Below, one piece after another: positions 56,383 through 61,660 of a stretch of 64,000 nt of DNA. The position numbers were made by a program, and so were the translations under genes. This stretch comes from Patescibacteria group bacterium. Its GTDB lineage: Bacteria; Patescibacteriota; Microgenomatia; Levybacterales; UBA12049. Every line of letters starts with the position of its first letter. The stretch's first letter is position 1. The stretch covers positions 12,414 through 76,413 of the forward strand of contig DASYZL010000019.1 of the NCBI GenBank assembly GCA_035946335.1, in the 5' to 3' direction. The notes beneath the pieces are model-generated. The model was not told where the DNA came from. It worked only from the letters and a program-made list of their open reading frames with translations, and made no database searches.

Positions 56383-56715
56383 GCTTCAATACAAAACCAA
56401 ATTGTCAAATTGCATGTGAATGCGTTTAAACAAGTGAAGAGAAAAAGTTTTTATCTACTCTCGACCATTAGTACTGGTAAGCTTAATGCATTGCTGCACT
56501 TCTACTGCCAGCCTATCAACCTCGTGATCTGCAAGGGGTCTAAGTGAAACCTTATCTTGGAGTCTGCTTCCCACTTAGATGCTTTCAGCGGTTATCAGGA
56601 AAGAACATAGCTACCCGGCAATGCAATCTTATTAGATCACAACCGGCACACCAGGGGTTCCCTCAATCCAGTCCTCTCGTCATTACGTTTGCTCAGATTT
56701 CTCTGAGGATCAGAC

Positions 56716-57679
56716 TATATCTTTACCCTCGTATAAACGTAGGGTATCGGCATATAATAGAAGTTTATTTCCGGATTATCCGGTACCTTCTATGTAAGTC
56801 GTTACGGGGACTATTCCAAAGAATTTCTCTGCGAAGAAAAATAGTTATACGTTCGCATTTGTACAATCCAAGATGAAATATCTTGCTTTGTGAGCAATTT
56901 TTTCTGTAATCTTGGAATAAGATCGATTAGCAACTTCGCTTGTCTTTGCTTAAATCGTAAATATGGCTGAAGTTTCAAAAGCATATCATATACTCTTTGA
57001 AATCCTTCAATTCGTAATTCGCTGATATGATCATTACGAATGTACACATACCCACAACCGAGGATTTTTTGAATCCACTGAATTTCTTGATGATATTTAC
57101 TATCTTGGTAAAAACAAATAACCGTTTTTACCCGGAAAATTTCTTTTCCTTTCGCAGTGCGATGAAGTTGAAGCATAATGCTTCCATCGCCGTCAAGAAA
57201 CCCTGCAATATATGCAAGTTGTAATTGATTTTCTTTAGAAAGTCTTCCCACGGTATTATCCTTTGACCTTTATCTTGAATATATCATAGGACTAGCGATA
57301 TATTCAAAGTCACGGGGACTTCACCGTTATTAGCCGAATACACTTACCACATTACTGCGGTAAGGAGCAATTGCTTACTAGGATCGACCCTCCTCAAGTT
57401 TCGACGGATATGCAGGATAGAGACCGACAATTGTGTTACATTTTCATTCCTGAAAATGATACAACATTTCTGTTGTACTCTCTATGTCGCCATAGAGTTC
57501 GGACTATATCTTATCAAGTTATATTGATTCTAGCATATAGTCTCTGAGGGTTTCCAAAAAATGGATCTTCCCTGCTGATTGACTCCACCGAACAAATTAT
57601 TACTATTGCTTATAGTATTGTCGGATACAGAGTGTTTCCAGCATTTAGCTAGATTTATAGACAGCAACGGTCTATGTTT
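56716..57679 (-). mobile_element. Group I intron in 23S domain V (I-CreI-type site, near E. coli 2593) carrying a LAGLIDADG homing endonuclease.
   Basis: The exon sequence ..CGTCGTAAGACAGT is interrupted. Group-I core strands are present: P7 5' CAGAGACUAUAUGC, P7 3' GAUAUAGUCCGA, and a P9 hairpin with a GCGA tetraloop. The boundaries are approximate (±20 nt at the 3' side). Confidence 0.7.
56811..57251 (-). CDS. Single-motif LAGLIDADG homing endonuclease (I-CreI-like) encoded in a 23S intron.
   Basis: 146 aa. LAYIAGFLDGDGSIMLQL is the LAGLIDADG motif. The size is typical of homodimeric family members. Confidence 0.85.
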   Translation of the reverse strand: MGRLSKENQLQLAYIAGFLDGDGSIMLQLHRTAKGKEIFRVKTVICFYQDSKYHQEIQWIQKILGCGYVYIRNDHISELRIEGFQRVYDMLLKLQPYLRFKQRQAKLLIDLIPRLQKKLLTKQDISSWIVQMRTYNYFSSQRNSLE

Positions 57680-57783
57680 ACTGTCTTACGACGTTCTGAA
57701 CCCAGCTCGCGTACCACTTTAACCGGCGAACAGCCGGACCCTTGGGAGCTTCTCCACCCCCAGGATGTGATGAGCCGACATCG

Positions 57784-58085: not shown

Positions 58086-58619
58086 AGGTGCCAAACCGCA
58101 TCGTCGCTGTGGACGCTTGGATGCGATCAGCCTGTTATCCCCGGGGTAGCTTTTATCCGTTAAGTTCCGCGCTTACCACTAAGCATCGGAAGATCACTAA
58201 CACCGACTTTCGTCTCTGCTCGACTTGTAGGTCTCGCAGTTAAGCTGGCTTATGCGTTTGCGCTATCACCTTGATTTCTTTACAAGGTTAGCCAACCTTT
58301 GTACGACTCCGTTGCGTTGTAGGAGTCAATCGCCCCAGTTAAACTGCCCATCAAGCACTGTTCCGTTGCCAAATTTTTATGTGGCTCACGGTAATGGTTG
58401 CTCATTCCAAAGAGAGGTATTTCACTATCGCCAAAGCTCCCTCCTATTCTCAACATATAAAATGAACTCCCAAATGCCAAACTACAGTAAAGCTCCCGGG
58501 GTCTTTTTGTCCATGCATACCTAGGCCGCGTCTTCACGGCCATCTCAATTTCGCCGAGTAGATGGTCAAGACAGTTGCTCAGTCGTTCTACCTTTCGTGC
58601 GGGTCGGAACTCCACGATT

Positions 58620-59555
58620 CTCCTCAATTACGTGAGGCGTAGACTATATCTTCACCTAATACTTCTAGAAGTTCCTCTTTTTGATATCTTCTTGCTCCAA
58701 AACCATTCATTTGATATGAAAAATCCAAAATTTTCTTTAGAGTATCCTTTTGCAAATGTTTACGTTCATATACCATCCGGCATACTACCGCAAATAAATC
58801 AAAATCTTTCTTTTTTGAAGAAAGCAATGGATAATCTTGAAAATGTGGAATAACTTTCATTATCAAGTCTTTGATACTCCTCACCTCAAACTTGTGTGTT
58901 CGATCACTCGGATTCTTTCGAATAGTACCGCAATCAAGAAATGTTTTAAACAATGTTAAAACTTCTTGACGATCGCTATTTTGAGAAACCGAAAAACTCG
59001 GTCGAACTTCAAGTCCAGTTAAGAGTTTTGATCTTGGAGAAAAAGAAATACAGAAACTTCCTTCTCCATCAGCGTATCCTGAGAGATAACTACCGATGGA
59101 ATCCGTATTAAGCGCTGGCGTGTTAGGCATATTATAAGTATGCCTCTGATTCATAAATGAATCAAGTCGTTACGGGGAACTGTTTTGTTTACAAAACAGT
59201 TCTTACCCACGGTTTGACCCTCATTTTTGCATGCTACCTTGTTAGCACAACATGATAGGGCTTTACCGTTTTAAGCCAGTACGGGGTTTATTATCGCCCG
59301 ACAAGGAACTTCGCTACCATAGACTTATATTTATTATCCTGAATCTAACTACCAGGAATCCTTTATGTCGCCATAAAGATCGGACTATATCATCTCTGTC
59401 TAATGCAGAGTTTGGCGTATAGTCTCTGAGGATTTTCGCTAGTGCGAATCTTTCCTGCTGATTGACTCCACCAAACAGATTATTACTATTTCTAGTACTG
59501 TTGGATACTGAGTTATTCCAGCATATAGCCAAATTTTGTAACTGCCCTATAGTTT
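58620..59555 (-). mobile_element. Group I intron in 23S domain IV (I-CeuI-type site, E. coli ~1917-1931) carrying a LAGLIDADG homing endonuclease.
   Basis: The exon ..GTAACTATAACTGTC is interrupted. The core elements are homologous to the 56716..57679 intron (P7 5' GUAUAGUCUCUGAGG; P7 3' GAUAUAGUCCGAUC; a P9 hairpin with GCGA loop). The 3' boundary is approximate. Confidence 0.7.
58624..59154 (-). CDS. Single-motif LAGLIDADG homing endonuclease (I-CeuI/I-CreI family) encoded in a 23S intron.
   Basis: 176 aa. YLSGYADGEGSFCISF is the LAGLIDADG motif. The ORF runs to within a few nt of the 3' splice site. Confidence 0.85.
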   Translation of the reverse strand: MNQRHTYNMPNTPALNTDSIGSYLSGYADGEGSFCISFSPRSKLLTGLEVRPSFSVSQNSDRQEVLTLFKTFLDCGTIRKNPSDRTHKFEVRSIKDLIMKVIPHFQDYPLLSSKKKDFDLFAVVCRMVYERKHLQKDTLKKILDFSYQMNGFGARRYQKEELLEVLGEDIVYASRN

Positions 59556-61660
59556 GACAGTTATAGTTACTGCTGCCGTTTACTGGAGCTTATATCCTAG
59601 ACTGGTATTGCTACTTCATCAGAGATATTTGACTTACCAGCACTGGGCAGGTGTCAGCCCCTATACGTTGCTTTTCAGCTTTGCAGGGACCTGTGTTTTA
59701 GATAAACAGTCGCTAAGCAATCTTTTGTTGCAACCACGATGAACGTGGTAGGGCATCTCCCATAGGTTACGCCCAGCTTTTGTGCCTAGTTCCTTGGCCA
59801 TCTTTCTCTCGATCACCTTGGTCTGCTCGACCAGCCCACCTGTGTCGGTTATGCGGTACGGAAGTATGTAGCTTTGTCTGCACTTGCGTGAGACGTAATG
59901 AAACTTTTCCCGGAAACTGAAACCTATCAAATCAATCTGCCTTGCGACAAACTTTTTCATCACAGCTCAAATAAACAAAACAACGGATTTGCCTGTTGTC
60001 TCTTTCTTGCTGCTTAAACGCGCCTTACGGACGCCTGATTGTTCCAATTTCGTCATTCCCTTACACGATTCTACATCCTGTAGTCGAATTGTGACGACTT
60101 GTCCATCGGATTACACCCCATTACACGAGGCACATCCTTAGGGCCGACTAACCCTTCGCTGAATTACATTGCGAAGGAAACCTTGGGCATTCGGTGGTAC
60201 AGATTCTCACTGTACTCTCGCTACTCATACCGGCATTCTCACTTGTCAGCGCTCCACCAAACCTTATGGTTCCGCTTCGCCGCACTGACAACGCTCCCCT
60301 ACCAATTGCATTACTGCAAGTCTCTAATTTCGGCACATGGCTTGATCCTCCTGAATTTCCGGCGCCAAGAATCATCCGCCAGTGAGCTGTTACGCTATCT
60401 TTAAAAGGTGGCTGCTTCTAAGCCAACTTCCTGGGTGTCTATGAATCTTGACTTCCTTGTAAACTGAGCCATGATTTAGAGGCCTTAATTGAGAGTCTGG
60501 GTTGTTTCCCTCTAGACCCATCGGCTTAGCCCGACAGGACTGACTACTAAGACAAGATCGTATGTATTCGGAGTTTGATTGGTTGCTACCTCTTGCGAAG
60601 CAGAAAACCATTCAGTGCTCTACCCCATACTCCTTTTATCTTAGCGCTATACCTAAATATATTTCGGGGAGAACCAGCTATCTCCAGGTTCGTTTGGCAT
60701 ATTGCCTCTAACCTCAAGTCATCTCAAGTCATTGCTGCGACTACGAGTTCGGTCCTCCCCCTGGCTTTCGTCAGAGTTCAACCTGCTCAAGGTTAGCTCA
60801 CCTGGTTTCGGGTCTATTCCCATCGTCTAATGCCTAATTAGGGCACGCTTTCACTACGCCTTCGTAACCATTGTTACTGAGACTTGACGATGCAGAATAA
60901 CTCACCGGTTCATTCTTCAATAGGCACGACGTCACTTGCGCTTCGTCTGCTTGTCAGCCAACAATTTCAGTTCTCTTTCACTCCCCTTCCGGGGTACTTT
61001 TCACCTTTCCCTCACGGTACTCGTTCACTATCGGTAGATTTTGGTATTTAGCCTTGGAGTGTGGACACCCCGAATTCCCACAGAGTTTTATCGTGCTCCA
61101 TGGTACTTAGGTACAAACTATCGGTGTTTTTAATTTTGCGTACACGCTTTTCACGTTCTTTGAGGAACCATTCCAGATTCTTCTGCTACTAAAAACACAT
61201 CAAATATCGTTTGCCCTGTAACCCCACAAAAAGTGGTTTAGGCTCTTCCGGTTTCGCTCACCGCTACTAACGGACTCTCATGTGATTTCTTTTCCTCGCG
61301 CTACTGAGATGTTTCAGTTGGCACGGTACCCTACCATACACTATACATAGTATTACTACCATACTTTTATATATGGTTGACCAAAAGGCCGGATTACTCC
61401 ATTCAGAAACCGCCGGATCGAAGGTTGATGGCACCTCCCCGACGAGTATCGCCGCCGTCTGCGTCTTTCCTCGGCCAAAATCTCCCAGGCATCCATTGCT
61501 GGCATTATGAGTAGATAATTAAAACCTTACTCCATCAGATCTTTCCGCGTATGCGCGGTTAGATGTGATGGAATCTCTTCACTTGTCAAAGAGCACTCAC
61601 GTTTTATCCTCTTGGATAAACCTCCTCTTTCTAGGAGGCTTGCCGAAAAGGACAAGCATG

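Follow-up and report, generated by a model that had tools for sequence, protein, structure and literature searches.

The 23S ribosomal RNA (rRNA) gene of a Patescibacteria group bacterium, a member of the Candidate Phyla Radiation (CPR), is very probably interrupted by five separate group I introns that are spliced out of the transcript, two of them carrying genes for homing endonucleases. The gene occupies positions 61518-56447, on the minus strand, of a 64,000-nucleotide (nt) stretch of contig DASYZL010000019.1 (assembly GCA_035946335.1), hereafter the window. Of its 5,072 nt, exons account for 2,906 nt and insertions for 2,166 nt, the introns making up 43% of the gene length, in agreement with the span of ~5.1 kb for a ~2.9-kb rRNA given in an earlier annotation of the same DNA (the initial annotation). 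That annotation recognized three introns. Comparison with E. coli rrlH by blastn and global MAFFT alignment reveals six collinear exon blocks and hence five introns, which follow E. coli positions 1923, 1951, 2500, 2604 and 2656 in domains IV and V and are named L1923, L1951, L2500, L2604 and L2656 accordingly; the numbering was checked on the literature landmarks U1939, C1962, A2503, A2602 and A2660. The proposed CPR host is confirmed by the RadA protein encoded in the window, which is 100% identical to a protein labelled "MAG TPA: Patescibacteria group bacterium", the next-best match being 73% identical.

From the 5′ end, the gene consists of exon 1 (59557..61518; E. coli 1-1923, ending in ...GUAACUAUAACUGU), intron 1 (L1923; 59324..59556, 233 nt), exon 2, which is a mini-exon of 28 nt (59296..59323; E. 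coli 1924-1951, UCUAUGGUAGCGAAGUUCCUUGUCGGGC), intron 2 (L1951; 58613..59295, 683 nt), exon 3 (58086..58612; E. coli 1952-2500), intron 3 (L2500; 57784..58085, 302 nt), exon 4 (57680..57783; E. coli 2501-2604, 90% identical to E. coli), intron 4 (L2604; 57428..57679, 252 nt), exon 5, a second mini-exon of 51 nt (57377..57427; E. coli 2605-2656, ending in ...CCUAGU), intron 5 (L2656; 56681..57376, 696 nt) and exon 6 (56447..56680; E. coli 2657-2904, starting with ACGAGAGGAC), all on the minus strand. Introns 1, 3 and 4 contain no open reading frame (ORF). Intron 2 carries a LAGLIDADG ORF in its P8 loop (58624..59154, minus strand; 176 amino acids (aa) from the first ATG), and intron 5, inserted between U2656 and A2657 of the sarcin-ricin loop, carries an I-CreI-like ORF in its P6 loop (56811..57251, minus strand; 146 aa, GTG start).

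The breaks at U1923 (the site of the I-CeuI intron), at U2500 and after GACAGU were all seen in the initial annotation, but two pairs of introns were fused there. Its first supposed intron consists of the L1923 intron, the 28-nt exon (59323-59296) and the L1951 intron; its third consists of the L2604 intron, the 51-nt exon (57427-57377) and the L2656 intron. The break after GACAGU, which had been placed at ~2593, is at U2604, the exon being continuous over 2501-2604, and the first junction, GTAACTATAACTGT|CAAAC, lies 3 nt downstream of the position given before. Because of this fusion, the two ORFs had been assigned to introns at the I-CeuI and I-CreI sites and the enzymes were supposed to home there, whereas it is the L1951 and L2656 introns that contain the ORFs. 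The gene holds neither an I-CreI-type system, since no intron follows 2593, nor an I-CeuI-type system, since the L1923 intron of 233 nt is devoid of an ORF. Nesting of one intron in another (a twintron) was also considered for each pair and was rejected, as the 28 and 51 nt in between match rRNA sequence exactly.

The two mini-exons are easy to miss, and the covariance model for the large-subunit (LSU) rRNA is misled at this locus. In the whole-window scan, Rfam RF02541 matches with 1703.8 bits from 61518 and the match, 57643-61518, is labelled as the full model (1-2925), although the true 3′ part lies ~1.2 kb further on. The end at 57643 was rejected as an artefact of alignment across introns: when the 3′ part of the gene was searched alone, RF02541 matched 56458-56702 (model positions 2656-2912, 148 bits). 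Routine annotation of this kind would truncate the 23S gene, with loss of exons 5 and 6.

The exon-intron boundaries are defined by comparison with relatives. The 36-nt junctions predicted for the ligated rRNA were searched in the related loci fetched for this work (designated L003, L004 and so on), and five of five are present uninterrupted in related 23S genes. The L1923 junction (...AACUGU|UCUAUGG...) matches at 36/36 positions in L004, L014, L018 and L024, the L1951 junction (...GUCGGGC|GAGUUCC...) at 36/36, with GGGC|GAGUUCC the same as in the intronless L003, and the L2500 junction (...GGCACCU|CGAUGUC...) at 36/36 in L004, L005 and L093; the L2604 junction (...GACAGU|UCGGUCU...) matches at 34/36 in L003, L007 and L010, and the L2656 junction (...CCUAGU|ACGAGAGG...) at 32/36. 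All five introns end in G, and the 5′ exon ends in U at four sites and in C at L1951. The terminal G is conserved in 35/35 L1951 relatives and in 60/61 candidate L2656 relatives.

At L1951, position 1951 is C in the window and U in E. coli. Relatives lacking the intron read GGGCGAGUUCC (L003) and GGGCAAGUUCC (L004), and therefore the 5′ exon of intron 2 ends in C1951. A junction after G1950, or after a U located 3 nt into the intron (...GGGCGAU), was rejected because of these intron-less sequences and because L009 permits only C|...G|A. The window sequence by itself allows the boundary to slide (C|G...G|G versus CG|...GG|), an ambiguity which is settled by the terminal-G and P1 pattern of the relatives.

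The five insertions have the structure of group I introns. Introns 1, 4 and 3 match Rfam RF00028 in the whole-window scan at 59361-59566 (67.4 bits), 57480-57689 (63.8 bits) and 57792-58095 (51.5 bits), respectively, all above the gathering score of 50 bits. At a relaxed threshold, partial matches are seen in intron 5 (56691-56847; 34.7 bits, E about 1e-6) and intron 2 (58621-58779; 20.9 bits). The idea that this CPR 23S gene harbours group I introns is thus upheld, three of them by RF00028 above gathering, with the count raised to five. Introns 1 and 4 align to the full RF00028 model, and their P1, the helix formed by the end of the 5′ exon and the internal guide sequence, sets U1923 and U2604 opposite G. 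A U·G pair at the 5′ splice site is present for L1923, L2604, L2500 and L2656. The guide sequence of intron 3, GGGG(C/U)GC, pairs with GGCACCU and is common to ~20 related L2500 introns.

For the ORF-bearing introns, relatives were gathered via their endonucleases, giving 80 loci from species-representative genomes and 80 metagenome loci. A P1-P9 model with the P3/P7 pseudoknot was drawn on an alignment of 49 L2656 introns. In this family, 84.7% of cells are paired, compared with ~41% in slid controls, double changes occur in 45/67 pairs, and 0/500 shuffles match any observed measure. Pairing reaches 97.6% in P3, 99.7% in P4, 100% in P6, 99% in P7 and 99.7% in P9, and P3 and P7 are long-range helices that span the ORF. 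P1 of the family reads (U)AGU|AA-GNAA-UUGCU(A) and contains U2656·G in 49/49 introns, and that of window intron 5 is (U)AGU|AA-GCAA-UUGCU. Comparison of the 49 sequences favoured this GNAA-tetraloop P1 with U·G over an alternative P1 for intron 5 in which an A is bulged and a U-A pair is formed.

In the L1951 family (35 distinct introns), P3, P6 and P7 are 100% paired, P4 98.9% and P9 94.4%, and 75% of all cells are paired, compared with ~42% in slid controls. P8, both strands of which are coding, is 79.7% paired with 55 double changes; compensatory changes are found in P3, P8 and P9. Like IA-type introns, the family has P7.1 and P7.2 hairpins, and these contain the two candidate start codons of the ORF. 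The figure of 59% obtained for P1 of this family is not meaningful, as the MAFFT columns are out of register because the loop length varies, and a motif-anchored count was used for P1 instead. The group I core of both ORF-bearing introns is supported by covariation.

The motif-anchored count reveals a distinctive feature of L1951. The base at -1 (rRNA position 1951) and its partner in the guide sequence, taken as the base beside the CCC that pairs with G1948-1950 (with L041 corrected for one regular-expression mis-hit), covary in the 35 introns: U·G in 27/27 and C·A in 8/8. The introns with C·A show at least two P1 designs, each resembling a different U·G design, which suggests that the switch occurred more than once. 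C·A is the geometric equivalent of U·G. The classical demonstration that C·A can serve for U·G is reportedly that of Doudna, Cormack and Szostak in 1989. Constructs derived from Tetrahymena have been built with an engineered c-A pair in P1 (PMC11417360). On balance, we lean toward the reading that in this lineage the L1951 intron splices after a cytidine by means of C·A in P1, that the guide base has changed from G to A wherever the host has C1951, at least two independent times, and that the L1951 and L2656 enzyme families, both biochemically uncharacterised and the latter tied to the universally conserved sarcin-ricin loop, represent new meganuclease specificities. If so, these introns would provide a natural covariation test in which wobble geometry, not base identity, sets the group I 5′ splice site, and a case of a mobile intron co-adapting to a host rRNA polymorphism.

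Both ORFs (59154-58624 and 57251-56811) encode single-motif LAGLIDADG proteins, as the initial annotation had stated, each with one Pfam LAGLIDADG_1 (PF00961) domain (82.9 and 37.2 bits against a cut-off of 23.1; E=3.4e-23 for the intron 2 ORF and E=6e-9 for the intron 5 ORF). Both are full length and extend into core helices: P8 for the intron 2 ORF and P4/P6 for the intron 5 ORF. The proposed kinship with I-CreI and I-CeuI holds for the 146-aa protein, which is I-CreI-like in sequence and fold, and not for the other, among whose top matches I-CeuI is absent.

The intron 2 protein is probably 168 aa long, starting from the ATG at 59130, rather than 176 aa, because most homologues have 168 aa, as does a database protein (P0121) with 100% identity to it. 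Its motif is YLSGYADGEGSF, in which D21, G22, E23 and G24 are invariant, the acidic E23 of GYADGEGS being invariant in 18 homologues. The best matches of this protein are I-TnaI, I-Vdi141I and single domains of the I-OnuI family: it matches PDB 5gkk with E=1e-20, and its AlphaFold model (predicted local distance difference test (pLDDT) 87) is similar to I-TnaI/I-Vdi141I/I-OnuI-family domains with template-modelling (TM) scores of 0.77-0.81 and root-mean-square deviations (rmsd) of 1.6-2.2 Å, with a Foldseek probability of 1.00 to I-TnaI and I-Vdi141I. Homologues of ~45% identity or more are all located at L1951; weaker ones (35-45% identity) are at L2604, L1917 and L1923. At L2604, where the window intron has no ORF, many other genomes carry a 730-800-nt intron with a LAGLIDADG ORF of ~160 aa (L004 5043-5844; L048-L061, Acidimicrobiia and others), and the 35-45% identity of these proteins to the window L1951 enzyme links the endonuclease lineages of L1951, L2604, L1917 and L1923.

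The 146-aa protein of intron 5 matches I-CreI, I-MsoI and I-CvuI among PDB sequences (E 1e-10 to 1e-29). Its AlphaFold model has a pLDDT of 74, with low confidence for the N-terminal helix, and a TM score of 0.70 and Foldseek probability of 1.00 to I-CreI and I-CvuI. The motif AGFLDGDGS is invariant in 22 homologues (D20, G21, D22 and G23), and D22 is aligned to I-CreI D20. There are 733 homologues at E≤1e-5, with 58-81% identity among the 120 matches listed, and wherever the 3′ flank of a homologue is readable, down to 39% identity, the insertion site is L2656, the downstream exon starting from E. coli 2657. The ORF begins at the P4′/P6 5′ strand (ACCGUGGG), so that the GTG start codon lies within P4′/P6, and its stop codon abuts the P6 3′ strand; the C-terminal VPVTT of many homologues is encoded by the core sequence GUCCCCGUAACGACU.

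Both endonuclease families are strictly bound to their sites, the homologues of each being tied to L1951 and L2656, respectively, in >100 loci. The predicted intron-less targets are GCGAAGTTCCTTGTCGGGC^GAGTTCCGACCCGCACGAAAGG for L1951 and GAGGAGGGTCGATCCTAGT^ACGAGAGGACTGGATTGAGG for L2656; indirect support for cleavage comes from this site fidelity and from the activity of another CPR enzyme, I-ShaI (PMC11270868). Exact-sequence look-ups of the two endonucleases matched no record, the 168-aa version (P0121) being found by homology. Gene-calling programs choose other start codons or mask rRNA.

The set of introns changes from one close relative to the next. In L003, the closest of the relatives whose synteny is comparable, the domain-IV intron (seen at 1-452) is inserted at L1917 (GUAACUAU|GAACC...), not at L1923; L003 contains L1917, L2500 and L2656 introns and lacks those at L1951 and L2604. 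L004 has only the L2604 intron, with a 162-aa LAGLIDADG ORF, and the L2656 intron. The L1923+L1951 pair recurs in L007, L010 and L012, the L1923 orthologues being 233-247 nt long, and L004 and L005 share the L2604+L2656 pair. Such uneven occurrence is consistent with gain and loss through homing. In L003 (1691) and L010 (3016), which lack the L2604 intron, the site reads GACAGC|UCGG, with C at 2604 in place of the U of the window. Insertions in rRNA can also carry cargo of another kind, as in L008 (6284-6649), a Roizmanbacteria locus in which an ORF for a 121-aa 23S_rRNA_IVP protein lies inside a 23S insertion near E. coli 2600.

Introns 1 and 4 are paralogues with 78.5% identity, the differences lying mainly in P1, with its guide sequence, and in the P9 region. 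This points to one small ribozyme family residing in two sites of the same gene through a switch of site, which may have occurred, for example, by reverse splicing. Recent transposition within this genome was considered and rejected, as 78.5% is not above the 81-84% identity of L1923 orthologues between genomes; the site switch is therefore old, or the intron family is generally common to both sites.

Several contigs with these introns and endonucleases (L004, L010, L013, L014, L015, L019 and L079) are labelled Methylomirabilota, Eisenbacteria, Bathyarchaeota archaeon, Gammaproteobacteria or Klebsiella. The 23S exons of L004, the one locus measured over a long stretch, are ~80% identical to the window, compared with 63% for E. 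coli. The oddly labelled rRNA contigs are probably mis-binned CPR sequences.

How the gene would function can be outlined from its structure. Each intron would fold as a group I ribozyme, in which the end of the 5′ exon pairs with the internal guide sequence in P1 (U·G in four introns, C·A in L1951) and the terminal G marks the 3′ splice site, and two guanosine-initiated transesterifications would remove the intron. Splicing of all five introns and exon ligation would then restore a continuous 2.9-kb rRNA including helix 69/71 (H69/H71), the peptidyl-transferase region and the sarcin-ricin loop. The L1951 and L2656 enzymes, with a single motif each, would act as homodimers and cut intron-less alleles at their own sites, and repair of the cut allele would copy the intron in (homing). 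The three ORF-less introns may be passengers or relics persisting by splicing only.

Several observations weigh against this reading. Introns 2 and 5 when intact stay below the RF00028 gathering score, because their ORFs split their cores. The window L1951 intron has no canonical U at -1, and its guide sequence contains an extra C (AAACCCCG), so that a bulge or a C×C mismatch is needed beside the three G-C pairs; the same arrangement is present in L010. The window L2656 intron has lost the outermost pair of P1 (U2653-A). Neither predicted target site is more pseudo-palindromic than shuffled sequence (P=0.21 and 0.51), and pseudo-palindromy is therefore not used as support for homodimer recognition. 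In addition, the rRNA locus is a break point in an independent Logan assembly of this sample, and, the window being itself a metagenome assembly, continuity across the gene rests on one assembly.

This last point bears on the idea that the assembly joined rRNA fragments of several coexisting CPR populations into a chimeric gene with five introns. Metagenome assemblies classically collapse or become chimeric at rRNA loci, Logan contigs from the same run end at the rRNA gene, and many related rRNA contigs appear mis-binned. However, the flanking order 23S-5S-S1-RadA in the window is common to L003 and the Daviesbacteria contig L006, exon identity to relatives is even along the gene, and both intron pairs recur elsewhere (L1923+L1951 in L007, L010 and L012; L2604+L2656 in L004 and L005), which makes a chimera very unlikely. 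We hold it highly improbable that the insertions remain unspliced, being either excised without ligation to leave a fragmented 23S rRNA, like intervening sequences cut by RNase III, or retained as expansion segments. Intervening sequences of 23S rRNA that are cut without ligation are well known in bacteria and are suspected in CPR (PMC11270868), but all five insertions here have group I cores, guides pairing with the exon, a terminal G and, at the 5′ splice site, a wobble pair, features which are kept by compensatory changes including an exon-to-intron one; also, a ribosome would presumably tolerate insertions of 250-700 nt or breaks poorly in H69/H71, the peptidyl-transferase ring and the sarcin-ricin loop. 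The arrangement with three introns, in which the endonuclease genes lie inside L1923 and L2593 introns and the enzymes home to the classical sites, draws on a real L1923 intron and an I-CreI-like 146-aa protein, and U2604 lies within the 22-bp I-CreI recognition sequence. Its probability is virtually negligible: the 28- and 51-nt mini-exons, identical to rRNA, divide each of the supposed long introns into a pair of complete group I introns, every one with a P1 and a terminal G of its own, no interruption occurs at 2593, the endonuclease homologues are bound to L1951/L2656 in >100 loci, and relatives such as L003, L004 and L008 carry one intron of a pair without the other.

Five spliced introns could also be fixed and vertically inherited, with ORFs that are inactive relics or encode maturases aiding intron folding. 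Some organelle LAGLIDADG proteins do act as maturases. CPR genomes usually have one rRNA operon, which would make chances for homing rare, both ORFs overlap core helices (P8; P4/P6), and the adaptation of the L1951 guide sequence to host C1951 suggests long residence. We consider this reading nevertheless unlikely. The ORFs are full length with an invariant metal-binding acidic residue in the motif, and the patchy introns of L003, L004 and L010 relative to the window, together with homologues under many phylum labels, fit ongoing gain and loss; moreover, a related CPR enzyme is active in vitro (PMC11270868). Self-splicing introns at five sites, two of them mobile by means of their own endonucleases, are the reading that we prefer.

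Around the 23S gene, the 5S rRNA gene lies downstream (56266..56381, minus strand; Rfam RF00001, 65 bits) and a tRNA-Ala(UGC) gene directly upstream (61660..61733, minus strand; Rfam). Neither 16S rRNA nor tRNA-Ile was found upstream of this tRNA-Ala(UGC)-23S-5S cluster in the window (61734-64000); because these 2.3 kb lack 16S, the 16S gene appears to be unlinked, or at least not within 2.3 kb. Directly upstream of tRNA-Ala are genes for thioredoxin reductase (62857-61922) and thioredoxin (63183-62854). Elsewhere, the window contains very large ORFs of 2,671 aa (31777-39792, plus strand) and 1,722 aa (2998-8166, minus strand) and a tandem tRNA-Ala pair with anticodons GGC and CGC (46404-46573, minus strand).

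Intron-rich 23S genes such as this distort rRNA-based detection, binning and phylogeny of CPR bacteria. The locus also demonstrates how densely selfish ribozymes pack in the ribosome core, at H69/H71, the peptidyl-transferase region and the sarcin-ricin loop. The closest precedent is the CPR catalogue of Tsurumaki et al. (2024; J Bacteriol, PMC11270868), which describes insertions in 82% of 348 CPR 23S genes, more than one per gene being common and 16 the maximum. Group I-like insertions are stated there to concentrate in the 3′ half of 23S, sites 23IS6-14 include those at 1917, 1931, 1952, 2593, 2604 and 2657, at which LAGLIDADG_1 ORFs predominate, and several sites including 23IS13 and 23IS14 are described as unreported in other bacteria. 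The host group, the 3′ half of 23S and the single-domain LAGLIDADG_1 ORFs at 1952 and 2657 are the same as here, and the insertions here at E. coli positions 1951, 2604 and 2656 correspond to the catalogued sites 23IS8, 23IS13 and 23IS14 (~1952, 2604 and 2657); the differences of one nt arise because the boundaries in that paper, by its own statement, are approximate, being based on comparison with E. coli. The enzymes at 1952 and 2657 are uncharacterised, and the tested one, I-ShaI, which cuts its own insertion site and dimerises, is at 23IS7. Relative to that catalogue, the present genome and its exact combination of 1923, 1951, 2500, 2604 and 2656 are a new instance with boundaries at nucleotide level.

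Coxiella burnetii has two 23S rRNA introns, Cbu.L1917 and Cbu.L1951, the latter of 720 nt with a 157-aa LAGLIDADG ORF, and ORFs running into core helices have been described there (PMC1995217). Like the window, it has an L1951 group I intron with a single-motif LAGLIDADG ORF of similar size and an ORF-less intron tens of nt upstream, with a mini-exon between. The window differs in that the upstream partner is L1923 instead of L1917, the mini-exon is 28 nt, the L1951 5′ splice site follows C (C·A) instead of U, and three more introns are present downstream. The Coxiella mini-exon is said to be 34 bp by Raghavan et al. in 2007.

Among the endonucleases, I-CreI, I-MsoI and I-CvuI, homodimers encoded in chloroplast L2593 introns, are homologous to the 146-aa protein over its full length, with a single motif and the aspartate of GDG kept. 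The window enzyme is only ~25% identical to I-CreI and resides at L2656, 63 nt downstream of 2593; it must therefore recognise a sequence other than that of I-CreI. The 168-aa protein shares a single motif, with the glutamate of DGEG, with the group of I-TnaI (Thermotoga L1931), I-Vdi141I (archaeal rRNA intron) and I-OnuI-family single domains, but its site is L1951. The I-CeuI intron of Chlamydomonas chloroplast (L1923) is inserted at the same point as intron 1, UAACUAUAAC(G/U)GU|(C/U)CUA(A/U)GGUAGCGAA, whereas intron 1 has 233 nt and no ORF. The arrangement is thus one already catalogued for CPR, an ordinary if intron-rich example that leaves the established picture of CPR rRNA introns unchanged. 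The junctions, the mini-exons, the C·A/U·G covariation and the L2656 fidelity of the I-CreI-like family are refinements, not a new category, and within that picture the locus illustrates site-bound endonuclease lineages and a guide sequence that tracks a host rRNA substitution by C·A for U·G.

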